A DNA stretch of 61,488 bases. Origin: a virus (Duplodnaviria > Heunggongvirae > Uroviricota > Caudoviricetes). The stretch lies in IMG/VR virus record IMGVR_UViG_2908567220_000003. One strand, given 5' to 3'. A program made the translations under genes and the position numbers. Positions 7,501 to 47,774 of this stretch are shown piece after piece. Positions within the stretch are counted from its first letter, which is position 1. Every line of letters starts with the position of its first letter. The notes beneath the pieces were generated by a model. The model did no database searches, was not told the DNA's origin, and worked only from the letters and a program-made list of their open reading frames with translations.

Positions 7501-7992
7501 CAGATACTGTGAAGTGGTTTTACCCTTAATGGTGATGTCTTTTTCCGTCACCCAGCCACCGTTACGTTGTATCTGAACCAGCAGGCGGACTTCCGATGGA
7601 TTCCTGTCCCCCTTTGAGGTGGTTTCCACCAGTGCCTGCACGCCGAAGGTAAAACGCAGTCGGTCAATGTTTGCCGACGTGATGGTCCGGGTGATCGGCG
7701 TGTCGTATTTCACTTCCGTACCCAGCACCGTCTCGGAGCCGGAGGATTCAAATCCCTCCGGCGGTGTCTGCTCCTGCTCACCGGCCCGGAACACCACCGT
7801 GACGCCGGAGATGTTGGTATTCCCCTCACTGTCCAGCACTGGCGTACTGTTCAGCAGCACGCTTTTTAATCCATCCACCGGACCTTCAATCGGCCCTTCG
7901 CTGATGGCATCGATCACACTCAGCAACTGCGTGGACTTCAGGTTGTCCTTCGTTTCGCGCGGAGTATGCCCCTTACTGCTGCCTTTACCCAT
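4513..7992 (-). CDS. J: tail tip / host specificity protein J
   Basis: 1159-aa ORF; N-terminus [37 protein letters not shown] matches lambda gpJ; ATG verified. Confidence 0.9.
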
Positions 7993-27933: not shown

Positions 27934-28182
27934 TTACCGTTTCACGGGATCCCGCATTCTGCTTCTTAGTTTCCACAGGTATTCGATCATCGCTTCCACC
28001 TGCTCACGGTTGGTTGCGAAAATTTCCCCGGTCAGTGAGCTGCGCAGAAAATCATGATGATCCACAACAAACAACGCATCGGAAGAAAGCAGACGGCGAT
28101 ATTTTTTTGCTGTCGTGGTTTCCAGATCATCAAAACCATGAAACTTTTTATGTTGCTGAACTTCTTCAAATGTCACAGGCAT
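27934..28182 (-). CDS. hypothetical protein
   Basis: ATG at 28182 with AGGAGG RBS inside track ORF 27934..28221. Confidence 0.5.
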   Translation of the reverse strand: MPVTFEEVQQHKKFHGFDDLETTTAKKYRRLLSSDALFVVDHHDFLRSSLTGEIFATNREQVEAMIEYLWKLRSRMRDPVKR

Positions 28183-28227
28183 GTTTCCTCCTGCTACCAC
28201 GATACCAGAAACAGTTAACAACCGTTA

Positions 28228-28512
28228 TCAATTATCCCCTTTTTTTTTCGGGTAGTTCCTGAACATCTCACCGCCAGGTTTCTGTAAGCCCATCCCGGTA
28301 TGTGTGCGGTTTATGGCCTCTTTCAGTATTCCGAAATTATCCGGTATGACTGGTTGGCGCGCTGCCTTACGGATACATTCCGCGCGACGCTTTGCCACCT
28401 GTTCGCGCTCCTTGTCAGTGCTCACCAGCCACATAACATCAGCCCAACGTGCCGCCGCTCTCCGGTACAGCCCTTTAGCCTCCAGTTCTTCCGCTTTGCT
28501 GTCTTTAATCAT
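28228..28512 (-). CDS. PerC-family transcriptional activator-like protein
   Basis: ATG at 28512 (MIKDSKAEELEAKGLYRRAAARW); assignment from remembered PerC N-terminal motif. Confidence 0.5.
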   Translation of the reverse strand: MIKDSKAEELEAKGLYRRAAARWADVMWLVSTDKEREQVAKRRAECIRKAARQPVIPDNFGILKEAINRTHTGMGLQKPGGEMFRNYPKKKGDN

Positions 28513-28527
28513 GCTGTACCTCACTGC

Positions 28528-28953
28528 TTAAAACGGTATCCCGTCCCCGTACGGATCATCGTGCTGGCCTGTCTGTTGTTTTGCCCTGTTCAGTGCGTCA
28601 GTAGCCTGGCCCTGCTGGCCTTTTTTGCCGCCCGGTCGCGCCGTTCGCGCACTGATTACGCTGTCTGCGATGACCTGCCAGCCCTGCCGCATTTCGCCGT
28701 TCTGGCCTGTCCACTGGCTTACCTGCATGTTACCCGCCACACTCACCAGTTCGCCTTTCTGGTGTTTTGCCAGTGCATCGGCCTGTCTGCCAAACGCCAG
28801 GACGGATAACCACATCGTCGCCGTTCCGTCATCTGCCTGGCTGCACGGCAGGGGAACCGCCATACTCGCCATAGCCATTTGTGTCCCCTTGCTGGTGGTC
28901 TTTAACTGCGGGTCAGCCACCAGCCGCCCGTAAGCCGCTATCTGTGCTGTCAT
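28528..28953 (-). CDS. ssb: single-stranded DNA-binding protein (SSB-like OB fold with C-terminal DIPF tip)
   Basis: 141-aa ORF ending GDGIPF, Gly/Gln-rich linker; ATG verified. Confidence 0.65.
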   Translation of the reverse strand: MTAQIAAYGRLVADPQLKTTSKGTQMAMASMAVPLPCSQADDGTATMWLSVLAFGRQADALAKHQKGELVSVAGNMQVSQWTGQNGEMRQGWQVIADSVISARTARPGGKKGQQGQATDALNRAKQQTGQHDDPYGDGIPF

Positions 28954-29017
28954 GCTGTCTGTTCTCCGGTTTTAACGTTGATTGTTACGCTTGTTTACAC
29001 CCTTACGGTGAAATCCT

Positions 29018-29140
29018 GCGGGTTATAATCGCACTTTTGCGGGTTATAACTGCCGTTTTGCGGGTTACGTGCGGGTTACTGATTTCCTTTTTATTCATAC
29101 AGTTAATGCACTTATACACAGGATAACCCGCATAACCCGC
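29018..29140. repeat. iteron cluster 2 (candidate replication origin): four direct GCGGGTTA(T/C) repeats, AT-rich spacer, two inverted copies
   Basis: direct copies at 29018, 29039, 29060, 29071; AT-rich 29081..29120; inverted ATAACCCGC at 29123 and 29132; downstream of primase/helicase gene. Confidence 0.7.
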
Positions 29141-29163
29141 AACTTTTCACCTCACACAGGGGG

Positions 29164-31284
29164 TTAATCTTCTGCCTCAGGCTGGAACATCAGCACGTAA
29201 AAAACATGCTGCTTCCCCCCAATTTTGCCGAGCGCCTTTTTCTTGTAACGGCGATCGTTACCCGCTTCCAGCATTCCGGCAGCACTCAACGCGCGGGCAA
29301 AGTGAGACGGATTAAATCCCTGTGCTATCTCACCCTCAAATACATGCGGGAACGTGTAAAAACGGAACTCGTCATCTTCGTTTCTGATACTCCCCTTTCT
29401 GTATCCGGCAAGCTCTTTAATCGGTAAATCACGCTCGTCGGTGTTGGGCCACGGAAGGTATCTGCTGAATCCGAACGACGCTAAAAAAGCCTCTGCCTGT
29501 TCAACCATCTGTTTAAACTCCCTGTTACCCGTGCCGAACTCCTTCACCCAGGCATTAAAATTATGCTGAATGGCATCGCGGCACGCCTGAACATCCCAAC
29601 CAGTAATATGGACGGAAAGCACCAGCGCCGACTCCAGCATGGCGAATCGTTCCCCCACACGGTGAACCTGTTCGCCGTAACTCTCCGGTATCAGGTTGCG
29701 CCACCGTTCACGGCATGCCCTTACCGTATCCTTTGCCTCCTGCTGGTGGTCTGCCAGCCATTTAACCCATTCACGCCCCGCCGCCCCGTGATTTTCTGTC
29801 CAGGCATCCTTTAACGCGTCTGCGTGTGCCTTTCCGGTGCTGTATTCGTGAAACTGCGTGGCTTTTTCCATTGGCACGTTAAGCAGGCGGACAAGCTGCC
29901 CCGCCTTGACTTTTATCCCCTCCGTTTTGAGGAATGTCTCAACGTCCATTTCTCCGGTGCTGATTGCCACCGTGCGCCAGTGTTTGATCTCCCTGTTGCC
30001 GCCGTCCTTCGCCCCCTGTAATTTCCCCGAACCGTTAAACAGCGTATAAGCCGACGTGGACACTTCCCGCGCGTTTCCGGCCTGACCTATTTCATCCAGG
30101 GGTAATAGCCCGTCATTGTGCGCCTCTGCCTCGTTGGCGATGCCTAACGCTGTACCGTACCAGGTCAGCCGTTGCGCGTCCGGCTCTCCCCATAAACTGG
30201 ATGCGATGTTCTGTGTGGTGGTTTTCCCTGCCGATGACTGTTCGAAAAGATGTACCCCGAAGCCGTCAGCACCCACCAGCCCGATTAATGGTGCGGATAA
30301 CGATACCGCCACACCCAGCATCATGGACGGATTACCACCAGCCAGCCGCGCAACGGTATCGCGCCAGCCCTCCGCCGTTCCTGCCACAGAATAGCCATTA
30401 ACGGCAGCCGTTTTTCCGGTAAACAGGATCGGTTTTTCAGACTCACCAATGACTGAACCGTCCGGCATGATGTACGCACCAAAATGCCAGCCCGTTGTTG
30501 TGCTTAACTGCCATTCCTCATGGTTTCCGCTTAACTGCATCCAGTCAGCCAGGATAGCCCTGTATTTGCCGTTAGTTGTTACGTTAAGGCCGTGGTCTTT
30601 CAGCAACCGCCAGCCGTCACGGTCGCCAATGCCCCCGCACGGAACCGCCATTGTGATGACTTCATGGTTTGCGGGTTTCTTCCAGCGCATCACGCGGTAA
30701 TGCTCTTTGCCGATTGTCCCCGTTCCCAGTAGTTCAAGCGGGGAACATAACCACGTCTCAGGCCGGATAATTTCGCCTGACTGCTTGTCAACTTTGGGCG
30801 TTACCCAGAAAACACCATCGGCGCGACTTTCAACGCGGGGCTTTAATTCATCATCGCCCTGGCTTTCTGTGATTTTTTTCTTTAAGGGCAACACCAGACT
30901 TTCCCCGCGCTCGTATTCGTCTTTCAGCCGGGCAAGCTGCGGTGTCCAGTCCTCCAGTAGTTCACCGTTCTCGTCACAAAAACTGGCTTCCTTAACACCA
31001 GCCACTGCCAGCAGGGTTTCAATCTGTAACGCCTGTCTGTCATCCAGCTTTCCGGCACGTCTGACCATGGCGCGTAACCGTCCATCATCCACAATACGCA
31101 GGTTTTCCAGATTACCCAGGTCACGCCGCCCGAGATAAACAGGTGGTATTTTGTCGCCGCGCTTTCTGGCTTCTCCGCCCTGCATGTAATGCTCTGCGTG
31201 GCTGTATGCGTCATCCCCCGCAAAAATCACTGCATCCTCGCCTTTATCTTTCGGTAACAGTTTTACGTTCGGTGCCAGTTTCAT
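29164..31284 (-). CDS. replication primase/helicase (DUF927-type P-loop NTPase)
   Basis: 706-aa ORF with Walker A (SSAGKTTT); ATG verified; adjacent to iterons. Confidence 0.65.
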   Translation of the reverse strand: MKLAPNVKLLPKDKGEDAVIFAGDDAYSHAEHYMQGGEARKRGDKIPPVYLGRRDLGNLENLRIVDDGRLRAMVRRAGKLDDRQALQIETLLAVAGVKEASFCDENGELLEDWTPQLARLKDEYERGESLVLPLKKKITESQGDDELKPRVESRADGVFWVTPKVDKQSGEIIRPETWLCSPLELLGTGTIGKEHYRVMRWKKPANHEVITMAVPCGGIGDRDGWRLLKDHGLNVTTNGKYRAILADWMQLSGNHEEWQLSTTTGWHFGAYIMPDGSVIGESEKPILFTGKTAAVNGYSVAGTAEGWRDTVARLAGGNPSMMLGVAVSLSAPLIGLVGADGFGVHLFEQSSAGKTTTQNIASSLWGEPDAQRLTWYGTALGIANEAEAHNDGLLPLDEIGQAGNAREVSTSAYTLFNGSGKLQGAKDGGNREIKHWRTVAISTGEMDVETFLKTEGIKVKAGQLVRLLNVPMEKATQFHEYSTGKAHADALKDAWTENHGAAGREWVKWLADHQQEAKDTVRACRERWRNLIPESYGEQVHRVGERFAMLESALVLSVHITGWDVQACRDAIQHNFNAWVKEFGTGNREFKQMVEQAEAFLASFGFSRYLPWPNTDERDLPIKELAGYRKGSIRNEDDEFRFYTFPHVFEGEIAQGFNPSHFARALSAAGMLEAGNDRRYKKKALGKIGGKQHVFYVLMFQPEAED

Positions 31285-31580
31285 TTTTTACCTCTGGATG
31301 CGCTGAGCATGCTTTTTATTTTCTTAATATTTTCCCGTGCTTTTTCCCTGCTGGTGGGCTTACCGCGTGTTGCGTTCTGTACCAGAGAAAAATCACGCCG
31401 GAACTGATAAACAGGCATCACGCAGTCATAGCCGTACCCATCACGGCGGTAAGTAACGCACCGTCCCGCCACGCTTTTAATCGTTACCGTGCCGCCGTAG
31501 TTATCCCGGAAAATATCGCCGGGGCGGATTTCAGGCCGAGCGGGGCCGCTGGCAGTAAAGCCAGAAATTTTCTGTTTCAT
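31281..31580 (-). CDS. hypothetical protein
   Basis: 99-aa ORF, ATG verified, stop overlaps primase start. Confidence 0.4.
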   Translation of the reverse strand: MKQKISGFTASGPARPEIRPGDIFRDNYGGTVTIKSVAGRCVTYRRDGYGYDCVMPVYQFRRDFSLVQNATRGKPTSREKARENIKKIKSMLSASRGKK

Positions 31581-31585
31581 GGTTT

Positions 31586-31819
31586 TTATTTCCCGGTGTG
31601 TTGCTCTTTATATCTGTCGTGCAAGATGTCTATTTCTTGCAGTTCATTTATTACAGGCTCAAGAAGCGTTATTAATGCTGTTGCAATATTGCTGTTGCGT
31701 TTATCTCTTTCATTATCGCCAAGCGTTTCAAGCCATAAGCGCAATATTTCAAGCATGTTTTCACTGTAAGCAAGTGCGCTGTATGCATGATCTACTGTGT
31801 CATTGTAAATATCATGCAT
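31586..31819 (-). CDS. hypothetical protein
   Basis: 77-aa ORF, ATG verified. Confidence 0.4.
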   Translation of the reverse strand: MHDIYNDTVDHAYSALAYSENMLEILRLWLETLGDNERDKRNSNIATALITLLEPVINELQEIDILHDRYKEQHTGK

Positions 31820-31822
31820 GGC

Positions 31823-32023
31823 TCACCCCCCCTGAATATTCGCGTTAATCATTCCGACACGCTCTGCGAGTTCCTGTAATGATTCCCTTGTTGCGACAAT
31901 TGCTTCATCTGGCAGGTGGTAATTACTCACCACGCGACCTTTATCCACATTGACTAGCAACTGCCCGGTGAATTTCTCACGAAACTGGATGCGGTTAAGG
32001 TCGGTAAGTGACAGGTTAATCAT
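31823..32023 (-). CDS. hypothetical protein
   Basis: 66-aa ORF, ATG verified. Confidence 0.4.
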   Translation of the reverse strand: MINLSLTDLNRIQFREKFTGQLLVNVDKGRVVSNYHLPDEAIVATRESLQELAERVGMINANIQGG

Positions 32024-32219
32024 GGTGTACCCCCTGACGAATACGGGCGGCGAATACCATCACGCAGCCAGCCGGGGATTGCTGGCGTGCTTCCTGTTCG
32101 CTGGTGGCCTCAATGGTAATCACGCGCGGTTGTGCCGTGCTCAGGGCGATAAAACGCCAGATATATTTATTCAGGTTGTGCGAGTCCCGCCCTTGCGGGT
32201 GTGTGGTATGATTTCTCAT
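32016..32219 (-). CDS. hypothetical protein, first gene of leftward operon from the divergent control region
   Basis: ATG at 32219 with GAGGT RBS; only the 3-prime 67 codons of track ORF 32016..33089 are plausible. Confidence 0.4.
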   Translation of the reverse strand: MRNHTTHPQGRDSHNLNKYIWRFIALSTAQPRVITIEATSEQEARQQSPAGCVMVFAARIRQGVHHD

Positions 32220-32316
32220 AGCTACCTCGATACTCTTGCTATCGTTGGTGGTTAGACGCCCTGCATGTGTTGCGAGCACTGCGGGGCGTTGCTTAATTTG
32301 AGTGACAAAACTCAAA

Positions 32317-32395
32317 CTGTGCGCACAGATTAAAATCATGTGTGCGCACATGTCAATACTTAACATCTCATTTTTTTTGCTGTATTGTGTGCGCC
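32317..32395. promoter_or_regulatory. divergent promoter/operator region with TGTGCGCACA palindromes
   Basis: perfect 10-bp palindromes at 32319..32328 and 32341..32350 (23 bp centre to centre) plus TGTGTGCGCC half-site near 32386. Confidence 0.6.
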
Positions 32396-32424
32396 CATAA
32401 AGTCCATTTAAGTGAGGTGCATCA

Positions 32425-32622
32425 ATGTCTAGCGGTAACACAAACAACAAATCAGCAAAGAAAAATATTCGATTCCCACATGAGCTTATAGATGGGATTG
32501 ATGCCAGCGTTGAACAAGAAAAATTAACTAATCCTAGTGCTAATTTTTCCGCATGGGTCTTAGATGCCTGTGGACGCAAATTAAAATATGAACAGCGCCG
32601 GAAGGCCAAAGAATCAGAATAA
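32425..32622 (+). CDS. ribbon-helix-helix-type DNA-binding regulator (candidate satellite master repressor)
   Basis: 65-aa ORF, ATG with GTGAGGTG RBS; NIRFPHELIDGIDASVEQ pattern fits beta-strand plus helix of RHH fold. Confidence 0.45.
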   Translation: MSSGNTNNKSAKKNIRFPHELIDGIDASVEQEKLTNPSANFSAWVLDACGRKLKYEQRRKAKESE

Positions 32623-32664
32623 TCACTATCAGCGCCGTGGTGTGAGTAACTACGGCGCATTGCT

Positions 32665-32853
32665 ATGCAGGACAACACAATGACCGATAAAGAATTGACC
32701 AAAACATTATCACCGACACGGAAAAGACGGCGCAGAAAGATAGAGCATGAATCAGAAAGATTCGCACCTTGTTCGTTTGCTCTTGAGAAATTCCTTAAAG
32801 AGCGCAGGAAAAAGCTCTCGTTGCAAACCTTGGAACGAACCAAATCTGACTGA
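32665..32853 (+). CDS. hypothetical small basic protein
   Basis: 62-aa ORF, ATG verified; followed by GC hairpin and T-run. Confidence 0.35.
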   Translation: MQDNTMTDKELTKTLSPTRKRRRRKIEHESERFAPCSFALEKFLKERRKKLSLQTLERTKSD

Positions 32854-33233
32854 TCACATTGCCCACCAGCCGCAAATGTGGCATTGTTGGTGATGCTTTT
32901 GTTTTCCCTTGTTCCCACTGGCGACCCTTTTGCGGTCGCCTTTGTTTTGCCTGTTATCCGGCAATAGTGGCGCTTCGTCACCTGTCTGATATAATTCCAC
33001 AGCTTATATTCATTTTTTGCGCAGTAGGTTAATTGTTCGCAAGGGCGCTCCGGCAACGGGGCGCTTTTTGTTTTTACCCACCAGCACAATAAAAATCTTC
33101 ATTTTCCATTTTTGTAAAATTTCATGCTTTCCGGACGACTGGTCATATGTCATTTTTTAGCAGAAGATTTTGCCTTGCTGGTGGGTAGCTTCCCGGTCAA
33201 CACGATGTACCGTATAATCAACACCGCGTGTGG

Positions 33234-33812
33234 TTACTGAATACGCTCACCAAAGTAAAACTCAGGCTGGTATTCACGTATCAGCCTTTTTTCTTCTTCC
33301 TCCAGCTCACGCTTTTTGCGCTTACATGCCTGTAGCTCCCTCCCCTTCTCACTGGCACTTATCTGGTATTGCTCTTTGCGGCGGGAAAAATCCTGTAATG
33401 CGCCCCACGGGATACCATAAGCCCCCGTTTTTCTGATACCCGGTATCACATTTCTGAATACCCAGTTACTGAAACGATGAGCAAATGTGCCAGGCGTCGT
33501 TGCTTTGCGGCTGCGGGCTATTAGTTTGTAGAAACCTGATTCGGAGATAATGCTCATATTCTGATTTCCTCCGGGGGTGTAAGTTAAATTTACTCCCTTT
33601 TCGTCATCATCAAGCATCTGCAACGCCGTACGCGAATTGGTCAGTTCCAGCGCAGCACAAACATCCTTTGCAACAAACCACGGATCGCCGTTTAGATACA
33701 CCACACGAACATCCACGCCATCAAAGCGCAGAACGACCAGATCACGAATATCACAGAATTTTTTCACATGACGTGCGTCACCCTTGCCCGTCACGGCAAT
33801 ATTTTTATTCAT
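33234..33812 (-). CDS. Bro-N domain protein (antirepressor-like)
   Basis: 192-aa ORF with N-terminal Bro-N-like region and C-terminal charged coiled coil; ATG verified. Confidence 0.65.
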   Translation of the reverse strand: MNKNIAVTGKGDARHVKKFCDIRDLVVLRFDGVDVRVVYLNGDPWFVAKDVCAALELTNSRTALQMLDDDEKGVNLTYTPGGNQNMSIISESGFYKLIARSRKATTPGTFAHRFSNWVFRNVIPGIRKTGAYGIPWGALQDFSRRKEQYQISASEKGRELQACKRKKRELEEEEKRLIREYQPEFYFGERIQ

Positions 33813-33869
33813 TGCTTTTTACCTCACATACAAAAAACCCCGCATTGCGTGGTGCGGGGTTGTCGGTAA

Positions 33870-34148
33870 TTACTTATTGGCGTTTTTGTATGGGCTGTTT
33901 ACTTCCTTTACTCCTGGCGGATGCATAACCCACCAGAGCACATCAGAGAGCAACCAGGAAACAGACACTTTCCCTAAATGAGCACGAGCAGGAAATGCTC
34001 CCTCCTGTTCAAGTACCCAACGTCTGCTTCTTGAAAGCCCGGTACGATTGGCACACTCATGTTCGCGTATACGGCGATCATACGGTTCGCCATGATCTTT
34101 CAGAATCTGAATGCGTTCTTCGGGTGTAGGATAAATAAATTTTTGCAT
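33870..34148 (-). CDS. alpA: AlpA-family transcriptional regulator
   Basis: ATG at 34148 with AGGTGA RBS; motif GLSRSRRWVLEQEGAFPARAHLGKVSVSWLLSDV; downstream of integrase. Confidence 0.7.
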   Translation of the reverse strand: MQKFIYPTPEERIQILKDHGEPYDRRIREHECANRTGLSRSRRWVLEQEGAFPARAHLGKVSVSWLLSDVLWWVMHPPGVKEVNSPYKNANK

Positions 34149-34379
34149 AAAAATATCACCTATAAAAAAACCCGCCAAAAGACGGGTTGATTATATCTCA
34201 TTTAATTTAGCTCAGGGTTTCCATTCACCTTTTACCCATTCCAGCACCTCAGATAAGCGCCAGACTTTTGTTTGTGGGCCAATACATATTTTTCGTAACC
34301 GTCTCATTTAAACCGTCTTTCGCCTCCCTTTCCTGTTTCCGATACTAATGTCCATTTTCGCAGTAAAGGGACATTTAAG

Positions 34380-35030
34380 ATGAATGCACGAAAAGCGGTA
34401 CTGGCAGACAATCCGGAATTGATCCTGCGTGTGCTACAGCTGAGATTTGACGAGTCACTGTCGTACCCGCGCATTTCTGCGCAGACCGGTGTCAGCAAAA
34501 CCGCCATTTTTTCTCTGGTGAGGCGATTTCACCAGGTATTCACTGACTGGCCTCTTTCCGGTGAATATTCCTGCGGGCAACTGGCCCGGGCTCTTTTCCC
34601 GGGGCGATACCCTTCAGCCCCGACCGTGACTCAGCCTGTGAAAGCAGAGAAACCCCGCCGGAACCGATTTTCACCGGAGTTTAAATGGAGACTGGTTCAG
34701 CAAACTCTTTTACCCGGTGCCTGTGTCGCACAAATAGCTCGAGAGAATGGAATTAACGATAACCTGCTCTTTAACTGGCGGCATCTCTGGCGTAACGGTG
34801 GCCTGCAACCGCCCGGCGAACATGAAACATCGCTACTTCCCGTGACGTTAACTCCGGAGCCGGATAATAAAATCCCGGCACCAGTGCAGATACCTGAACA
34901 GATAAATACACTGCCAGACAGTCTGTGCTGCGAGCTGGTTCTGCCGGCCGGAACTCTCAGGCTGAAAGGTGAACTGACACCGGCGTTATTACAGACACTT
35001 ATCCGCGAAATGAAAGGGAGCAGCCACTGA
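34380..35030 (+). CDS. IS66-family accessory protein (orf1, HTH)
   Basis: 216-aa ORF, first of three in the IS. Confidence 0.7.
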   Translation: MNARKAVLADNPELILRVLQLRFDESLSYPRISAQTGVSKTAIFSLVRRFHQVFTDWPLSGEYSCGQLARALFPGRYPSAPTVTQPVKAEKPRRNRFSPEFKWRLVQQTLLPGACVAQIARENGINDNLLFNWRHLWRNGGLQPPGEHETSLLPVTLTPEPDNKIPAPVQIPEQINTLPDSLCCELVLPAGTLRLKGELTPALLQTLIREMKGSSH

Positions 35031-35377
35031 TGATATCTCTCCCTGCCGGTTCGCGTATCTGGCTGGTTGCCGGTATCACCGATATGCGAAATGGCTTTAA
35101 CGGCCTGGCCTCAAAAGTTCAGAACGTCCTGAAGGATGACCCGTTCTCCGGGCATCTGTTCATCTTCCGCGGACGCCGGGGTGACCAGATAAAAGTGCTG
35201 TGGGCTGACAGTGACGGACTGTGCCTCTTCACCAAACGCCTGGAGCGGGGCCGCTTCGTCTGGCCGGTCACCCGCGATGGAAAGGTTCACCTTACTCCGG
35301 CTCAGTTGTCCATGCTTCTCGAAGGCATCGACTGGAAGCACCCGAAACGAACGGAACGCGCTGGCATCCGCATATAA
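35030..35377 (+). CDS. tnpB: IS66-family TnpB (orf2)
   Basis: 115-aa ORF, ATGA overlap with orf1, typical IS66 orf2 size and sequence. Confidence 0.8.
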   Translation: MISLPAGSRIWLVAGITDMRNGFNGLASKVQNVLKDDPFSGHLFIFRGRRGDQIKVLWADSDGLCLFTKRLERGRFVWPVTRDGKVHLTPAQLSMLLEGIDWKHPKRTERAGIRI

Positions 35378-35396
35378 CCCGTTGTAAAGTGAGGAT

Positions 35397-36968
35397 ATGG
35401 ACACCTCACTTGCTCATGAGAATGCCCGCCTGCGGGCACTGTTGCAGACGCAACAGGACACCATCCGCCAGATGGCGAAATACAACCGCCTGCTCTCACA
35501 GCGGGTGGCGGCTTATGCTTCCGAAATCAACCGGCTGAAGGCGCTGGTTGCGAAACTGCAGCGCATGCAGTTCGGTAAAAGCTCAGAAAAACTTCGCGCT
35601 AAAACCGAACGGCAGATACAGGAAGCCCAGGAGCGAATCAGCGCACTTCAGGAAGAAATGGCGGAAACGCTGGATGAGCAATATGACCCGGTACTGCCAT
35701 CCGCCCTGCGCCAGTCTTCAGCCCGTAAGCCGTTACCGGCCTCACTTCCCCGTGAAACCCGGGTCATCCGGCCGGAAGAGGAATGCTGCCCGGCCTGTGG
35801 TGGTGACCTCAGTCCTCTGGGGTGTGATGTGTCAGAGCAACTGGAGCTTATCAGCAGCGCTTTTAAGGTTATCGAAACACAACGTCCGAAACTGGCCTGT
35901 TGCCGGTGCGACCATATCGTGCAGGCACCAGTACCTTCAAAACCCATTGCACGCAGTTATGCCGGAGCGGGGCTTCTGGCTCATATCGTCACCGGGAAGT
36001 ATGCAGACCATCTGCCGTTATACCGCCAGTCAGAAATATACCTTCGTCAGGGCGTGGAACTGAGCCGCGCCACGCTGGGGCGCTGGACCGGTGCCGTTGC
36101 TGAACTGCTGGAGCCGCTGTATGACGTGCTGCGCCAGTATGTGCTGATGCCCGGTAAAGTCCATGCGGATGATATCCCCGTTCCGGTCCAGGAGCCGGGC
36201 AGTGGTAAAACAAGAACTGCCCGGCTGTGGGTCTATGTCCGTGATGACCGTAACGCCGGTTCACAGATGCCCCCGGCGGTCTGGTTCGCGTACAGCCCGG
36301 ACCGGAAAGGTATCCATCCACAGAATCACCTGGCCGGTTACAGCGGTGTGCTTCAGGCAGATGCTTACGGTGGTTACCGGGCGTTATACGAATCCGGCAG
36401 AATAACGGAAGCCGCGTGTATGGCCCATGCCCGGAGAAAAATCCACGATGTGCATGCAAGAGTGCCAACCGACATCACCACGGAAGCCCTGCAGCGTATC
36501 GGTGAACTGTATGTCATCGAGGCAGAAGTCCGGGGATGTTCAGCAGAACAGCGTCTGGCAGCAAGAAAAGCCAGAGCGGCTCCACTGATGCAGTCACTGT
36601 ATGACTGGATACAGGAACAGATGAAAACACTGTCGCGTCACTCGGATACGGCAAAAGCGTTCGCATACCTGCTGAAACAGTGGGAGGCCCTGAACGTGTA
36701 CTGCAGTAATGGCTGGGTGGAAATCGACAACAACATCGCAGAGAACGCCTTACGGGGAGTGGCCGTAGGCCGGAAAAACTGGCTCTTCGCGGGTTCCGAC
36801 AGCGGTGGCGAACATGCGGCGGTGTTGTACTCGCTGATCGGCACATGCCGTCTGAACAATGTGGAACCAGAAAAATGGCTGCGTTACGTCATTGAGCATA
36901 TCCAGGATTGGCCGGCAAACCGGGTACGCGATCTGTTGCCCTGGAAAGTTGATCTGACCTCTCAGTAA
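35397..36968 (+). CDS. tnpC: IS66-family transposase (orf3)
   Basis: 523-aa ORF with leucine-zipper-like N-terminus and Cys-rich motif. Confidence 0.8.
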
Positions 36969-37122
36969 ATATCAATACGGTTCTGGCGAGCCGCTTACTA
37001 TTTTTCGTGGAAATTTTCCTTCCTTTTCAAGTAACGATCTGTGTCTCCTGCCAAGAGCGGTTAACCATGCACATTCATCTTCCTTAATCATCCTGTCGAT
37101 TGTTTCATCATTTTCAAGTTCT

Positions 37123-38346
37123 TCACGCGTAACTATTTGAATCATTACTGTCACCACTAATTTGCTTATTCAGATAGTCGTACCACCAGTTCATAGCTTC
37201 TTTTTTTCTGTCCATATACTGGCTTCTGTTATAAACCCCGGCAACACCGCCTAATGTGTGCCCAAGCAACTGTTCAACCACATTATGTTCAAAACCATGA
37301 TCACTTAGTTTTGTGGCAAACACTCTTCGCATATCATGCGCCGTCCATTTCTCCGAGTGTTTCATCCTTTTCCATGTCTTACCGATAGTTACGCTTGCCG
37401 TACACTGACGCATATCAAACCCAATCACATTTTCTTTGTTACCTGTTATTTTTTTTAACGTAACTAACCAGTTAAACATGCCATCAGGAATCGGTCTGAT
37501 TATTTCCCTGCCATTTTTGCTATGATCAGCGGGAACGCGCCATAATTTCTTATCAAAATCCCACTCTACCCAGGACGACAGTAATACTTCTGACAGTCGA
37601 CAACCAAAAACTACCAGGAAACGTAAAATAATTCGGTTTTCATATGATAATTCGTGATTGTCATAATCAGTATTAATACTTCGCCATAAATCTCTGATTT
37701 CATCATCTGTTAAAACCCTGCTTCTTCGCGCAGACTTTTTTCCCACATCACAGACCTCAAGATCATCAATTTCATGACTAATCGCGTATTTTCTTACCCT
37801 ACAAAATTTAAGCGCCTGTTTTGATATACGCAACAAAGCTCCGGCCTGTACAGGTGCTACTTTTTTTATTTTGTCAAAACACTTAATCCACATAGATATA
37901 GAGCAATCACTAAGTGGTACATGACCAATCACCGGATAAATATGTTTACCAAAGCACTGCCTGATATGTTCTGCTCCCCTACGCTTATCCATTGCATAAT
38001 TATCAAGCCAGTATTCAAGTGCCTCACGAACGGTAACAGGTTGCAAGGTGGCTTCCCGTTCAATTTTTATCTGAATCCGTGGATCTCTGCCCTCCGCAAG
38101 CCAAGTTCGACACTGATCGCGCATCTCTCTCGCTGATTTGAGACTCAGATCAGGATATTTTCCAAGTGTCAGCCAGATGGGCGCGGTTTCCCTTCCCGCC
38201 AGTCTGTAAAAGAAAACAAAACTAACACATCCGTATTTACTGACCCGTACCGAAAGCCCGTTACCATCAGCGATGGTTTCCTGCCTCTCACTCCTGCGTC
38301 CAAGCAGGGAACGAAGTTTTTTATCGCTCAGTTTGTTTAGCGCCAT
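37123..38346 (-). CDS. int: tyrosine integrase, P4-type (satellite)
   Basis: ATG at 38346 (MALNKLSDKKLRS) inside track ORF 37123..39546; C-terminal R..H..GH..Y catalytic pattern; adjacent to right junction. Confidence 0.85.
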   Translation of the reverse strand: MALNKLSDKKLRSLLGRRSERQETIADGNGLSVRVSKYGCVSFVFFYRLAGRETAPIWLTLGKYPDLSLKSAREMRDQCRTWLAEGRDPRIQIKIEREATLQPVTVREALEYWLDNYAMDKRRGAEHIRQCFGKHIYPVIGHVPLSDCSISMWIKCFDKIKKVAPVQAGALLRISKQALKFCRVRKYAISHEIDDLEVCDVGKKSARRSRVLTDDEIRDLWRSINTDYDNHELSYENRIILRFLVVFGCRLSEVLLSSWVEWDFDKKLWRVPADHSKNGREIIRPIPDGMFNWLVTLKKITGNKENVIGFDMRQCTASVTIGKTWKRMKHSEKWTAHDMRRVFATKLSDHGFEHNVVEQLLGHTLGGVAGVYNRSQYMDRKKEAMNWWYDYLNKQISGDSNDSNSYA

Positions 38347-38518
38347 GTGATTTATAACCCGTTTTTGCAATACACAGTGCAATACACAAATGATGAAAAC
38401 AGCCAGAACCTTCCAGAAAAAACAAAAACGACGAACAAGAAAAAAATCTTTTTCTTTCATTTGGTTACTAAAAAAATCAGGACAGGTCGCACTGTTGTTA
38501 CGGCGTGATGTTACTTTC

Positions 38519-39546
38519 TTGGTAAAAAAATTCACCCGCGCAGAGACCTGCTCCTTCGCTTTTTTCGCCAGACGACGCAGATCATCCCAGCGTTTACAGA
38601 TGCCCAGGCCAGGATTCGCTTTCTGCCAGACCGTTTCATCAAACGGATCATCTCCCTCATCGAGCGTGTAAATGATCGCAAAGTAGGAGTCGTCTTTTAC
38701 CGCGCCCTCCACGTCGCTGTTATAGCCTCGCAATACCTTAATGGCGTAATCGCGCTGCTCGTAGCAAATCCCTTCCTTGTTAAAGCCAGCCGTGGTGATG
38801 CCAAATAACAGAGACTGCAGACGGGCACCGGTTGCCGTTTCCAGAACGTCCCACACGTCACGGGTTTTATGAGCATGCAGCTCATCAATAATGGCACAGT
38901 GGATGTTCAGACCGTCCAGGTTGTTTGCATCCGAGGAAAGCGGTTCAAATTTTGATGCGCTCTGCTCCTGGTAAATCGCCAGCTTGTTGAAGTCAAACAA
39001 CCGCCCGAGTGTCGACCGGGCTTTTCTGACCATATTTTTGGCGTCTTCAAACACAATTCTGGCCTGGTCACGCGTGGTTGCGGCTGAATACACCTCAGCC
39101 CCGCCTTCACCATCTGCCCCCGTCATATACAGACCGATACCCGATGACAGGGTTGATTTTGCGTTTTTACGGGCAACTTCGTTGTATGCTGTCCGGAACC
39201 GGCGCACCATCACCGGGCGTCCACTGCCATCGCTGCGCATGACAACTTCCCCGGTTTCTTCATTCACCAGCGGAATGACAAAACCAAAAATATTAATGAG
39301 GATAAACACATGCCAGTCCATCAACTCAATGGGCTGACCTGCCAGCGCCCCTTTCACATGGGGTACAAATTTGTAGAAATTAAGGATGTGCTGTGCACGA
39401 GGTTCACTGAAATAAATCCCCCGCTCTTCGCCGTACTTCAGATCATCAAGAAAACGCTGGCAGGCCAGACGGACAAATTCGCCAGCAACAATTTCTCCTG
39501 CAACAACACGTTCGGCGTAGCGGATCCCGTCAGCCACTTTTGCCAT
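38519..39546 (-). pseudogene. terL: terminase large subunit, N-terminal (ATPase) fragment of the interrupted prophage terL
   Basis: first ~345 codons of track ORF 37123..39546 align to N-terminal half of TerL 21083..22744 up to the FFTKK motif; ATG overlaps terS stop. Confidence 0.8.
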
Positions 39547-40028
39547 CAGTCTCTCGCTTTTAAAAGCTCTGCCAGCGGATCAACATCATCCGGTCCGGCG
39601 GTATTTACTTTCGCCCGGCTTGCCGGTGACATACCAAACTCTGCAAGCATCGCCCGAATCCGCTTCCAGGCATCAGCCTTCATCGCAGCAGCCGGGTGTG
39701 CCTTGATCAGCACATCGCCATTCTGCGTTTCCGTGCGGTAGGTATAACCCTCAACATCGAGTATTTCGCAGTGATGCCGGTATTCGGTGTAGGCTTCCAC
39801 CAGTAACTCGAGCGCACGTGCATCGAGCTGAGAAATGATCCCTTCCGCATTCAGCTCTTCCGCCATTCGCCTGAACCAGTACTTCCCCTGCGCCCCTAAA
39901 TGTTGCGGAATTTTAGGGAGACATTTTTCATCCTTTTTAGCGGTTTTTTTTGGGTCTTTAACGGGGCGCTTTGAGGGGTTGCCTCGTATCAAATGCAGGC
40001 GTGGCGGGGTTTTCAGGGGTCCTGACAT
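39546..40028 (-). CDS. terS: terminase small subunit, P27 family (prophage copy)
   Basis: 160-aa ORF directly upstream of terL N-fragment; ATG verified. Confidence 0.75.
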   Translation of the reverse strand: MSGPLKTPPRLHLIRGNPSKRPVKDPKKTAKKDEKCLPKIPQHLGAQGKYWFRRMAEELNAEGIISQLDARALELLVEAYTEYRHHCEILDVEGYTYRTETQNGDVLIKAHPAAAMKADAWKRIRAMLAEFGMSPASRAKVNTAGPDDVDPLAELLKARD

Positions 40029-40175
40029 AATTGGTTTTACCTATCAATCATTTAATCACATTCCAATAAAAAGTTTTCGAACCTGCGGCGATGCGAGGAA
40101 AGGTCAGGCGGCGGTACTGAGCAGCCAGGGTTGCAGAGATTTGACCTGCCCCTCCCCTACAGATGGGAACTGTTA

Positions 40176-40526
40176 TCAATTGATGCGTTCGCGCGCTGTT
40201 TTTGCTTTATGACAGGGCCAGCACAGACTCTGCAGGTTACTGTCTGCATCCGTGCCACCATGAGCTTTCGGAATGATGTGGTCCACAGTTCTGGCTTCAA
40301 CGGCTCTCCCATTGCGCAGGCAGTTCTGACACAGATGATTATCACGCTTCAGTATGCGCGCACGTATGGCATCCCATTTCGAGCCATAGCCACGCTGGTG
40401 GCGGCTCAGTCCGCGTTGATGCTGTACCCATCCTTCGCCACGATGTTTATCGCAGTAACCAGAACTGTCTGTGGTTGTACCTGCACATCCACGCTTACGG
40501 CAGGCGCGTGGGATTCGTGGGGGCAT
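40176..40526 (-). CDS. HNH endonuclease (packaging-associated, prophage copy)
   Basis: ATG at 40526 (MPPRIPRACRKRGC) inside track ORF 40176..40625; paralog of 23373..23813. Confidence 0.75.
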   Translation of the reverse strand: MPPRIPRACRKRGCAGTTTDSSGYCDKHRGEGWVQHQRGLSRHQRGYGSKWDAIRARILKRDNHLCQNCLRNGRAVEARTVDHIIPKAHGGTDADSNLQSLCWPCHKAKTARERIN

Positions 40527-41051
40527 ATGTACTCCAATGAAGAAGCCACCGACATAGCCTCCTCCATTCATAGTGAAACTATTTTCATCTACCCAGTAAT
40601 GAATTCTTTGTAGAGTTGTGATCAATACAACTCACTAATGGAGAGGCTTGTCCAACACGTTGGACAAGTTTCCTGTTTGATTTACTGGACACTATAGAAG
40701 GACAGAATGCCTTCATCACTCGAATAACATCAATTAAGGAGGTTCAACATGTTTCATTCCACAAATCATCAGGCTGTAATTATGGCTGCATCAGCTTGTG
40801 CCACAGACCTTTTCCGCTTCACTTTGAGCCTGATTCATTTCTACCTGACCGGCTCGCCTCTATCTTTTTAATCCCCGCTTTATCCAAATTGCATTGCCAG
40901 AATGCCGACAACAGACTGACATTCAAATCCTGACTACCTCCGATAGGCTGAGCATCCACCTATATAGTTTTAATTTTCATCAATCCATTTAACTATCGTT
41001 TAATTGTTGTCACATAGGATTCTGCCGTTTTTAACAATGCAGGATAATAAG

Positions 41052-41345
41052 ATGAAAAAAATGTTGTTTTCTGCCGCTCTGGCAATGCTTATTACAGGAT
41101 GTGCTCAACAGACGTTTACTGTTGGAAACAAACCGACAGCAGTAACACCAAAGGAAACCATCACCCATCATTTCTTCGTTTCGGGAATTGGACAGGAGAA
41201 AACTGTTGATGCAGCCAAAATTTGTGGCGGCGCAGAAAATGTTGTTAAAACAGAAACCCAGCAAACATTCGTAAATGGATTTCTCGGTTTTATTACTTTA
41301 GGCATTTATACTCCACTGGAAGCGCGTGTGTATTGCTCACAATAA
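41052..41345 (+). CDS. bor: Bor/Iss-family lipoprotein
   Basis: ATG at 41052 (MKKMLFSAALAMLITGC lipobox) inside track ORF 41004..41345; opposite strand to late genes as in lambda. Confidence 0.85.
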   Translation: MKKMLFSAALAMLITGCAQQTFTVGNKPTAVTPKETITHHFFVSGIGQEKTVDAAKICGGAENVVKTETQQTFVNGFLGFITLGIYTPLEARVYCSQ

Positions 41346-41376
41346 TTGCATGAGTTGCCCATCGATATGGGCAGCT

Positions 41377-41838
41377 CTATCTGCACTGCTCATTAATATA
41401 CTTCTGGGTTCCTTCCAGTTGTTTTTGCATAGTGATCAGCCTCTCTCTGAGGGTGAAATAATCCCGTTCAGCGGTGTCTGCCAGTCGGGGGCTGGTTGCA
41501 TTATCCACGCCGGAGGCGGTGGTGGCTTCACGCACTGACTGACAGACTGCTTTGATGTGCAACCGACGACGACCAGCGGCAACATCAGCGCGCAGAGTTT
41601 CATTTTCAGCTTTCGCATTGGCTAATTCTCTCGAGTACTTTGCATCGAGTGCAGCAACATCACGCTGACGCTGCTGCATGTCAGCGATAGTGGCGATCGC
41701 CTGCTTCAGCTCACTGACTTTTTTATCACGCTGTTCTTTGTAGGCGATGGCGTTATCACGGTAATGATTGACCGCCCACGACAGGCAGACGATGATGCAG
41801 ATAACCAAAGCATAAATAATCGCGGCGACTCTGCTCAC
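41377..41838 (-). CDS. Rz: i-spanin Rz
   Basis: lambda Rz-like; track start 41853 is TTG; GTG at 41838 overlaps R stop (GTGA). Confidence 0.8.
41436..41618 (-). CDS. Rz1: o-spanin Rz1 lipoprotein embedded in Rz
   Basis: 60-aa ORF in +1 frame inside Rz; lipobox LVVVGC and proline-rich stretch; ATG verified. Confidence 0.8.
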
Positions 41839-42368
41839 TGCTCTATCCCCCAACAGGCTAATGCGCTTTCCTGGTCACGACGAATAACCTGTCCATAGCA
41901 GTTATTTGAACGTATGCGGCAATCGCGCCCACCATCTTTTATCCACCAGCGAATCGCCTCGCATGCGCCCTTACGATCACCGGCATTCAGCCGCTTATAA
42001 AACGTCGACGGGAAACACTTACCGGGGCCAATGTTATAGGGACAGAATGACGCTATACCCGCTTTTTGTGGTTCGGTCAGTGGTACTTTAATATTGCGCT
42101 CCACCCATGCCAGCGCCTTATCACGCTCAATGGCGTTGACCTGGTCGCATTTTTCCTTCGACAGTTTCATACCGGGAAAAACGGGTTTTCCATCCACCAT
42201 CGTGGCACCCCGACAGATGGTCCAGATGCCGGACCCATCGCGGTATGCCGTTGTGTGGTTACCTTCTTTTTCATCCAGAAACTGGTCGAGAATATCAGGC
42301 GCGGGCGCACAGACGGCAATCAGTGCCAGAACGGCAGCCGACAGGCCGTATCTGATTTTTGCGTTCAT
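41835..42368 (-). CDS. R: SAR endolysin (lysozyme with N-terminal signal-anchor-release segment)
   Basis: 177-aa ORF with hydrophobic N-terminus and lysozyme catalytic region ([22 protein letters not shown]); ATG verified. Confidence 0.8.
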
Positions 42369-44094: not shown

Positions 44095-44541
44095 GGAGTT
44101 TACTCACATCTGACAAAATCAATATAAACAGCCCCTCCGGAGAGGGGCTGGAGAGTGGCGCTATGTGCCATTGCATGGTGCCGGGTGCCTCCCGGTGAAT
44201 TCAGTACCAGCACCTGAATCCGCGATTATCCCATATACCTACTCGCTGATTGCCCCTCCGCACAGGGGGATTCACCATGCCAGTTTCTTTTAACAAACTC
44301 CCCGCAAACCAGACAACAGTCAACCGCCTGAATTGTGAAGTATTTAAAAATTTCTCCCGCTAACTGATACCCGGCTAACAGTCTGGCGTTTTCTTTTTCA
44401 GCAACGGGAAAGCAACAACCACCACACCCGCCACCAGCACACCGTCAGCCAGCACTGACATTATCCGGCTGCTGCAATGCCACTCACAAAAACAGTAAGC
44501 AATCACTTTTTACCGTAACAAGTGATAATCCAGATATGTAT

Positions 44542-45008: not shown

Positions 45009-45082
45009 CGCGCTGTACTGGATTCGAACCAGTGACCGATTGCTTAGAAGGCAATTGCTCTGTCCGGCTGAGCTAACAACGC
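45009..45082 (-). tRNA. tRNA-Arg (anticodon UCU)
   Basis: manual fold: 7-bp acceptor stem, D arm GCTC/GAGC, anticodon loop CTTCTAA, T loop GGTTCGAATCC; no encoded CCA. Confidence 0.75.
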
Positions 45083-45183
45083 TGAATACCGATAATGGAC
45101 CGCCATCGGGGACCCGCCCCCGCACCAACAACCCTGTTATCGTGTCGTCTGCTCTTCCTGATAAGCTAATGGCGGTTTGTGAT

Positions 45184-45258
45184 GGTGGCCCTTGCTGGAT
45201 TTGAACCAGCGACCTGGCGATTATGAGTCGCTCGCTCTCACCACTGAGCTAAAGGGCC
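45184..45258 (-). tRNA. tRNA with anticodon CAU (Ile2/Met type, ileX-like)
   Basis: manual fold: acceptor GGCCCTT, anticodon loop CTCATAA, T loop GGTTCAAATCC, encoded CCA. Confidence 0.75.
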
Positions 45259-47659: not shown

Positions 47660-47774
47660 GTTACCTCCAGATCCGTTGCTGGAAAGTGCGTAACCGTCTC
47701 ATTTAAACCGTCTTTCGCCTCCCTTTCCTGTTTCCGATACTAATGTCCATTTTCGCAGTAAAGGGACATTTAAG

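Follow-up and report, generated by a model that had tools for sequence, protein, structure and literature searches.

The late promoters of satellite P4 are activated by Ogr of its helper phage P2, and in engineered phage-triggered suicide, a strategy of the 1990s in Lactococcus, a lethal gene was placed behind a phage-inducible promoter. AbiD1 is described in one report as an abortive infection (Abi) gene that is switched on by a phage product (PMC2661086). The locus considered here lies in IMG/VR virus record IMGVR_UViG_2908567220_000003, a stretch of 61,488 nucleotides (hereafter, the window) that represents an Escherichia coli lambdoid prophage whose late genes are encoded on the - strand. 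The 525-bp gap between an HNH endonuclease gene and the lipoprotein gene bor contains a putative + strand cassette (40621-40871). It opens with a promoter of the T7 group (P1), which a terminator-type hairpin separates from a promoter of the SP6 group (P2); next come a short predicted 5' stem, a strong ribosome-binding site and an open reading frame (ORF) of 40 codons. With moderate confidence, we propose that this cassette is silent in the lysogen, is fired by the RNA polymerase of a superinfecting phage and yields a peptide that serves exclusion or abortive infection.

That the upstream elements resemble promoters of phage polymerases emerged from a comparison of the block with Klebsiella prophages in which a related peptide is encoded. 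P1 and P2, of the kind used by the single-subunit RNA polymerases of virulent Autographiviridae, both lie on the + strand within 130 bp upstream of the ORF and are directed at it. Scored with a matrix built from the 12 annotated promoters of phage FE44 (Berlinvirus, T7 group), P1 reaches 30.2 bits, compared to a minimum, median and maximum of 14.5, 33.6 and 38.1 bits for FE44's own promoters (leave-one-out), while the next best site in the 61-kb window scores 8.2 bits and the background mean is -30.7; the P1 of the allele in Shigella phage SfIV reaches 35.3 bits. With a matrix built from 11 K1E sites, P2 scores 37.5 bits (21.2, 34.0 and 37.4 for K1E's own promoters), the next best site in the window having 6.6 bits. 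Both sites thereby exceed every other site in the 61 kb, on either strand, by 22-31 bits. P2 also gives the single top score in the window against the SP6 consensus (18/23). Compared by Hamming distance with the T7 consensus, P1 matches at 15/23 positions, which is not distinctive, and only the matrices made from real Berlinvirus promoters singled it out.

BLASTN searches with 33-mers around the two sites (40621-40643 and 40680-40702) against 50,697 phage records agree with these assignments. Prophage copies aside, the P1 query found mostly T7-group phages (Yersinia Berlin, Yepe2, Erwinia FE44, E. coli 285P, Kvp1, T7), with 21/21 identity in FE44, 285P and PP74; matches in Yepe2, FE44 and Kvp1 fall on sites annotated as promoters, and the FE44 promoter at 12530 has the same first 19 nt as P1. 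The P2 query, again apart from prophage copies, found hardly anything but K1E and its relatives, the SP6-like coliphages of the genus Vectrevirus, whose identity with it is 27/28 to 28/29 in 7-9 places per phage genome; these places are the repeated promoter of those phages; one match is annotated as a promoter in a phage K5 record, and P2 is the same as the K1E site at 13935 over 24 nt (GATTTACTGGACACTATAGAAGGA). P1 therefore has the sequence of a T7-group promoter and P2 that of an SP6-group promoter of the K1E type. By alignment with the phage promoters, transcripts would start at G40640 (P1) and G40697 (P2). The K1E-type promoter occurs in 628 of 5426 complete E. coli genomes and the cassette block in 633 of them, from which it follows that this promoter is essentially confined to the cassette.

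A promoter scan of both strands of 40527-40750 found no sigma-70-type promoter, and no gene for a single-subunit (T7-type) RNA polymerase is present in the window. An earlier note on this stretch had suggested that the ORF is expressed in the lysogen, a view at odds with a region whose only promoters are of the T7 and SP6 groups. A small inverted repeat, GAGTTGT-GATCAAT-ACAACTC, overlaps P1 from -27 to -7; other alleles have GAGTCGC as its left arm, with or without a matching change in the promoter, and as read from the alignment the allelic changes retain full pairing only as - strand RNA, through G-U pairs.

The element between the promoters is the palindrome CTTGTCCAAC-AC-GTTGGACAAG, with perfect 10-bp arms at 40647-40656 and 40659-40668. 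The earlier note had recorded it as a 9-bp inverted repeat at 40650-40672; the palindrome does exist, with those positions off by about 2-4 nt, the 9-bp version (TTGTCCAAC/GTTGGACAA) occupying 40648-40667. The window holds 43 short inverted repeats, so that a perfect 10-bp palindrome is not rare per se. What sets this one apart is that compensatory changes maintain it. It forms the core of a hairpin that corresponds to +4 to +33 of the P1 transcript and stands immediately upstream of P2. The + strand RNA has a stem of 13 pairs, including G-U pairs, and the loop CACG, the G-U extension being available on the + strand only. Of 16 copies from prophages and phages, 7 have TC/GA in place of CA/TG, a compensatory change of two adjacent pairs (CG to UA and AU to CG). 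Over the 16 copies, pairing is maintained in 84.6% of cells, compared to 32-46% with a slid partner, and none of 500 shuffles reached the observed score.

Nearly the same hairpin is present in virulent phages. K1E has four copies of (G)GCTTGTCTCACATGTGAGACA(GGC), at 6806, 6988, 9574 and 32587, of which the first two lie just past the RNA polymerase gene and lead straight into phage promoters. The SP6-like Klebsiella phage F4M1D has GGGCTTGTCCAACACGTTAGACA at 7706, in the same place, followed by its first promoter. The alleles of the window (GTCCAACACGTTGGAC) and of O157 (GTCTCACACGTGAGAC) are the K1E and F4M1D hairpin types. A terminator scan rates the hairpin as terminator-like on the + strand, but the run of T in its tail (GUUUCCUGUUUGAUUU) is broken and the stem lacks a high G+C content. 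Most likely, the hairpin insulates the cassette from stray host transcription, and most likely it also forms the 5' stem of P1 transcripts.

These observations leave little room for the suggestion in the earlier note that the palindrome is an operator or part of the cos region. It is a near copy of a hairpin that is repeated in K1E-like and Klebsiella SP6-like phages just before a phage promoter, no host promoter is near, and its arms co-vary. Furthermore, the genome ends of SfIV lie 58 nt past the HNH gene, on the terminase side and not at the palindrome. The palindrome also fits literally the TGT-N12-ACA dyad bound by P2 Ogr and P4 Delta. The identity with hairpins of SP6-like phages explains the sequence better, however, and the promoter scan gave no suitable -10 element for an Ogr-type dyad.

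Downstream of P2, the predicted 5-bp stem at the start of its transcript resembles the stems with which K1E late transcripts start. The leader around the Shine-Dalgarno sequence and the AUG is less structured than shuffled sequence (z +1.08). AAGGAGG ahead of the ATG at 40749 was confirmed, as was the 40-residue ORF on the strand of bor, with exactly the residues quoted. Among 99 copies taken from IMG/VR and from genomes, ATTAAGGAGGTT(C/A)AAC-ATG is retained in 97, with AAGGAAG and AAGAAGG as rare variants, and the site is like the leader of the K1E capsid gene (TATAAGGAGGTTTATTAATG). An anti-Shine-Dalgarno role, in which CCUCCUU of the late messenger RNA (mRNA) would pair with the HNH leader, was considered and dropped, since the + strand promoters explain the conservation. 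In O157-type alleles (loci L003, L004, L005 and relatives), the stretch equivalent to 40707-40748 has CAC in place of the TAA at 40726-40728, and an in-frame upstream ATG gives a 54-residue form, MPSSLESHQLRRFN-MFHS..., that is not preceded by a good ribosome-binding site.

The reading frame is intact in all 99 copies. Its two halves evolve differently. Codons 2-23 are very variable, and almost all changes there alter the amino acid (window compared to SfIV: proportion of non-synonymous differences, pN, 0.29; of synonymous differences, pS, 0.10). Codons 24-40 overlap, over 51 nt and in antisense, the 3' end of lysC, which encodes an Rz1-like o-spanin. Across the E. coli and Klebsiella alleles, this overlap has 8 synonymous changes and 1 non-synonymous change in the frame of the ORF, compared to 1 and 8 in the frame of LysC, where IKKIEASRSGRNESGSK becomes IRRIEASRSGRSESGSK, or IRKIEESRLGRSESGSKG and variants. 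Some copies of the lysC relic have stops in the LysC frame while the ORF is whole, and a divergent Klebsiella allele has conservative replacements (ILSVAHYFLTGSPLSF). With an 8:1 synonymous bias in the ORF and LysC bearing the changes, the C-terminal half has been selected as a protein, and its last 15-17 residues are under purifying selection even at the expense of LysC. Codons 24-40 thus have the substitution pattern of a coding sequence, whereas codons 2-23, with pN above pS, do not. Given these patterns and the conserved start signals, the ORF very likely encodes a genuine small protein.

The predicted peptide is a single helix over residues 2-34 (AlphaFold, mean predicted local distance difference test score, pLDDT, 83.8). 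Its best 19-residue Kyte-Doolittle window scores 1.40 in this allele, 0.90 in SfIV and 1.83 in Klebsiella, so that the earlier description of the ORF as hydrophobic holds only moderately. A small membrane protein or toxin was a fair guess, considering the long and fairly hydrophobic helix; the part of that guess that placed its expression in the lysogen found no support. The peptide family is small, comprising only an E. coli/Shigella type and a Klebsiella type among 5.8 billion clusters. Tblastn gave no match that would point to an origin of the peptide in Autographiviridae, and of the cassette only the promoters and the hairpin are found in records of Autographiviridae, with no further cassette sequence and none of the peptide. 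The idea that the variable half of the ORF is an antisense 'spacer' against Autographiviridae was also tried and rejected, as no match was found.

Coordinates of the cassette and of the genes around it are collected in the table.

Features of the cassette and its surroundings (positions in the window)
Feature	Position	Strand	Remarks
P1, T7-group promoter (Studiervirinae, Berlinvirus type)	40621..40643	+	ATCAATACAACTCACTAAT, then GGAG; FE44 matrix, BLASTN
Small inverted repeat	40613..40633	.	overlaps P1
Hairpin, including palindrome core 40647-40668	40643..40672	+	followed by T-rich GTTTCCTGTTTGATTT
P2, SP6-group promoter (Molineuxvirinae, Vectrevirus/K1E type)	40680..40702	+	ATTTACTGGACACTATA, then GAAGGA; K1E matrix, BLASTN
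5' stem-loop of P2 transcript (predicted)	40697..40714	+	GAAGG-acagaatg-CCTTC, 5 bp
Shine-Dalgarno sequence AAGGAGG	40736..40742	+	6 nt before the ATG at 40749
40-codon ORF, MFHSTNHQAVIMAASACATDLFRFTLSLIHFYLTGSPLSF	40749..40871 including stop	+	N-terminal half variable, C-terminal LSLIHFYLTGSPLSF conserved
Relic of lysC 3' end (Rz1-like o-spanin)	40819..40937	-	antisense to ORF codons 24-40
HNH endonuclease gene, packaging module	40176..40526	-	Pfam HNH; left boundary of conserved block
P27-family small terminase	39546-40028		large terminase comes next
bor/iss lipoprotein gene	41052..41345	+	Pfam Lambda_Bor
Rz/Rz1, the window's own pair	41377-41853		

The surroundings of the cassette are mosaic. 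By megablast, 40530-40938 matches the stretch between lysC and HNH of SfIV at 85%, and 40937-41060 matches, at 99%, DNA that lies upstream of bor in lambda, with the break at 40937-40938. Both SfIV and E. coli JNE120393 have the - strand equivalent of 40819-40979 annotated as the 3' end of lysC, which identifies the stretch retained in the window as a lysC relic to which lambda-like bor DNA was joined at about 40937. The HNH gene of the window differs from that of most relatives at about 30% of its sites, and at 57% of third codon positions, while the block 40527-40940 has 0-2 differing sites against the same relatives; exchange between phages therefore involves the block as a whole, and a breakpoint lies at the start of HNH. 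In Klebsiella, too, the cassette is shared among prophages with different terminase families. The position of the ORF upstream of bor, mentioned in the earlier note, lends no support to a functional link: besides the joint at about 40937, SfIV-type and Klebsiella prophages have this cassette but lack bor. Bor lies 180 nt downstream on the same strand and could, by its placement, be co-transcribed from P1 or P2; it follows in 56 of about 90 cassette copies and is absent from the others, and so is not a constant partner.

The Klebsiella cassettes provide an independent comparison. There the ORF is flanked by the lysis genes on one side and by packaging modules of a quite different kind, lacking an HNH gene, on the other, and it encodes the same peptide C-terminus. 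It is preceded by the same hairpin and by AATAGTGGCGAGTATAGAAC, which is the promoter of Klebsiella Molineuxvirinae phages (29-32 bits with the F4M1D matrix; 9-11 matches per phage genome). Further upstream is a promoter of either the T7/Berlin type or the K11/Przondovirus type, the latter matching 144 phage records, nearly all of them Klebsiella T7-like phages. Cross-scores are low both ways, for E. coli cassettes with the Klebsiella matrix and for Klebsiella cassettes with the E. coli-phage matrix. A strong ribosome-binding site and the ATG are retained, although the upstream and N-terminal sequences are unrelated. The promoters thus match the host genus. In one Klebsiella cassette (locus L159, 2911-2932), there is a promoter-like stretch, CCTTTAATGTTACACGAGTAGG, for which KP34-like (Drulisvirus) phages have a single match per genome, at 21/22 and with a weak E-value; it might represent a third polymerase specificity in the array. 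Among 58 loci with HNH homologues in other genera, the upstream regions are dissimilar and a loose promoter-core pattern gave nothing convincing. Two Photorhabdus loci have TATTAGCGTAGCCACTATTGAAAT (L030, ~2191, - strand) and TATTGTCGTAATCACTATTGAAAT (L036, ~2109, - strand) about 300-400 nt upstream of HNH on the opposite strand, and with their T7-like core (CACTATTG) these could be analogous promoters in another genus.

From these comparisons, we infer that phage polymerases fire at P1 and P2, that the peptide is the effector and that defence is the outcome. The host RNA polymerase would have no promoter in the cassette and the hairpin would stop stray read-through. Lacking a host promoter and insulated by the hairpin, the gene should be silent in the lysogen and also in the prophage's own lytic growth, during which the opposite strand of the cassette DNA would be transcribed. 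Upon infection by a virulent T7-like (Berlinvirus type) or SP6-like (K1E type) phage, the polymerase of the invader would recognize P1 or P2 and make abundant mRNA modelled like its own late messages, with production of the peptide at a high rate. Such expression would evade the shut-off of host transcription that T7- and SP6-like phages impose. The peptide would most likely damage the membrane or another essential function, by which the infection would be aborted or excluded and sister lysogens protected.

Several points weigh against this proposal. Use of the promoters is read from their sequence, and some alleles are altered at conserved promoter positions (CTCGCTA in the O157 allele, CACTTTAG in SfIV), so that these copies may be weak or dead. 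If the hairpin efficiently terminated phage polymerases, little would be gained from P1. Expression would also have only a short time, since host DNA is degraded by T7-like phages in a matter of minutes. On the side of the peptide, codons 2-23 show no purifying selection and are compatible with an absence of constraint and neutral drift or with diversifying selection, and the hydropathy of the E. coli alleles is less than is usually required of a membrane span. No family match was found in Pfam, PHROGs, PADLOC or NCBIfam, which makes the activity of the peptide a guess. The peptide is also absent from two supplements on ribosome profiling (Ribo-seq) and small ORFs, the first of which concerns strain Sakai, where the 300-320 kb region checked has no cassette.

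The alternative that survives best, which we nevertheless regard as unlikely, accepts the firing of a phage polymerase and holds that the useful product is a long + strand RNA, the ORF only stabilizing or marking the message. Such an RNA could express downstream morons (bor/iss), run antisense through the lysis and late genes of the prophage, or harm the invader through polymerase collisions or double-stranded RNA. There is no terminator after the ORF, bor often comes next on the same strand, the Klebsiella loci L158 and L160 have a 125-residue + strand gene in that place, and the N-terminal half of the peptide is unconstrained. This account, however, fits poorly with an ORF whose C-terminus is maintained as protein against the interests of LysC, and with a ribosome-binding site and ATG that persist even where Klebsiella has unrelated sequence around them. 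Nor would it explain why the downstream neighbour varies and why the variable part has no antisense match in Autographiviridae.

Less probable still is a non-functional fossil, in which promoter-hairpin-promoter DNA of Autographiviridae was captured by illegitimate recombination in a co-infection and has persisted at an often-exchanged joint of the lambdoid mosaic. Two phage subfamilies would then have contributed promoters in one orientation ahead of a conserved, translated ORF, and host-matched sets would have arisen independently in E. coli and Klebsiella. Promoter scores on a par with the phages' own sites, a block less diverse than the adjoining HNH gene and purifying selection on the ORF likewise speak against decay, even though the block has sharp borders and behaves as a unit of recombination, SP6-like phages have hairpin and promoter in one contiguous piece and some alleles have promoter-weakening changes.

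The T7 primary origin consists of the tandem promoters phi1.1A/B and an AT-rich stretch, and promoters plus nearby DNA act as origins. The two tandem promoters of the cassette could by this analogy be replication origins, through which a segment of the prophage would be replicated, recombined or carried by the invader to spread. We consider such parasitism at the DNA level very improbable: the two promoters differ in polymerase specificity, neither a packaging signal nor an AT-rich origin-like stretch is seen, the conserved ribosome-binding site and ORF would be left unexplained, and Autographiviridae records lack the remainder of the cassette. Equally hard to sustain is the view of the earlier note, a small membrane toxin or protein expressed by the host polymerase in the lysogen with the palindrome as operator or part of cos, which has in its favour the strong ribosome-binding site, the conserved ORF and a position typical of lysogenic-conversion genes such as bor, but has against it the missing sigma-70 promoter, the RNA-style compensatory changes and G-U pairs of a phage-type hairpin, an SfIV cos on the other side of HNH, the lack of annotation of the ORF position by the Prokaryotic Genome Annotation Pipeline in the RefSeq E. 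coli genome records examined, and the lack of any Rfam match in the region, antitoxin RNAs included (searched across the whole window at the gathering score and across 40000-41500 with E-values of up to 10).

A polymerase-triggered exclusion cassette thus remains the preferred explanation, and it allows a wider, more tentative suggestion, for which we would not claim even odds: that enterobacterial temperate phages carry 'promoter-mimic sensors', host-insulated arrays of exact copies of local T7-like, SP6-like and perhaps KP34-like promoters from which the polymerase of an invader expresses a peptide for suicide or exclusion. Such sensors would represent a new class of infection sensing, which reads the transcription specificity of the invader and not a protein or nucleic-acid pattern. 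They would also exert a selective pressure on Autographiviridae to diversify their polymerase-promoter pairs. Should the cassette itself work as proposed, a defence that is immune to host shut-off, since the attacker itself transcribes it, would be present in about one of every nine E. coli strains sequenced and in many Klebsiella. It would offer a simple reason for the changing specificity of T7-like phages, and would be relevant for phage therapy, in which K1E-, K1-5-, KP32- and SP6-like phages are common candidates. Furthermore, a 40-residue protein born antisense to a spanin gene would be added to the real microproteins that annotation pipelines skip, and a general search strategy is suggested, in which bacterial genomes are scanned with the promoter matrices of their virulent phages.

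Other elements of the window and of related prophages deserve mention. An 807-residue ORF at 37123-39546 (- strand) fuses the N-terminal part of the large terminase (ATPase and start of the nuclease) to an Arm-DNA-binding domain and a tyrosine integrase, which indicates that an integrase-bearing element has inserted into the terL gene of the prophage. Beside it, within 28000-38300, are a Bro-N protein (33234-33812) and a DUF927 primase-like protein (29164-31284). The inserted element looks like a satellite of the P4 or phage-inducible chromosomal island type, or like a second prophage inside the first. A second, complete large terminase gene with ATPase and nuclease domains lies at 21083-22744 (- strand); the window thus has two packaging modules and probably comprises two phage-derived elements in tandem. 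Two IS66-family copies on the + strand (34294-36968 and 47689-50363), 13395 bp apart and the same over at least the first 300 nt, each contain a helix-turn-helix transposase ORF, a 115-residue ORF and a DDE_Tnp_IS66 transposase. At 44120-44309 (-), 45009-45258 (-), 50966-51137 (-) and 56903-56954 (+), Rfam models exceed their gathering scores; they comprise the small RNA STnc100, two transfer RNA genes, the sok antitoxin RNA and DicF RNA. In SfIV-type E. coli prophages (loci L163-L166), a 1050-residue gene at 4730-6123, past the holin gene and on the strand of the cassette, has Metallophos and weak NACHT matches and is a candidate defence gene.

Searches of the open-access literature found no description of such a cassette or of T7- or SP6-type promoters borne by a prophage, although a report in a subscription journal is possible. 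In its architecture, the cassette is closest to the late units of T7- and SP6-like phages, such as T7 phi10-gene 10 and the K1E capsid gene, with which it shares the 23-bp promoter for a single-subunit polymerase, the 5' stem-loop, a leader free of structure and, 6-8 nt ahead of the ATG, an AAGGAG(G) ribosome-binding site. As in K1E and F4M1D, where this arrangement follows the polymerase gene, a hairpin stands directly ahead of a promoter. In contrast to those units, the cassette resides in a temperate lambdoid prophage that has no such polymerase, combines two polymerase specificities and drives a gene that is absent from Autographiviridae.

Its insertion between lysis and packaging modules, against late transcription and with a mosaic distribution, is that of lambdoid morons such as lambda bor. 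Morons have host-type promoters and are expressed in the lysogen, whereas the cassette has only promoters of foreign phages. The product resembles type I toxins (Hok, TisB, Ibs) in being a prophage-encoded helical, hydrophobic peptide of less than 50 residues whose expression must stay off. Unlike for these toxins, neither an antisense antitoxin RNA (no Rfam match in 40000-41500) nor a host promoter (no sigma-70-like site) was found, the hydropathy of the E. coli alleles is lower and there is no sequence relationship.

With P4 and P2 Ogr, the cassette has in common that genes of a resident element are silent behind promoters that can be used only through the transcription machinery of another phage. 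In that system, however, the helper gives an activator of the host polymerase and the satellite exploits the helper to spread, while the invader at this locus would bring a whole polymerase, the phages are unrelated and no hijacking of packaging is apparent. The logic is nearest to that of engineered phage-triggered suicide and AbiD1, in which a harmful product appears only after a trigger from the invader and infected cells release no progeny. The cassette, with putative toxicity and a putative role in defence, would differ in being a natural device that uses copies of the invader's own polymerase promoters.

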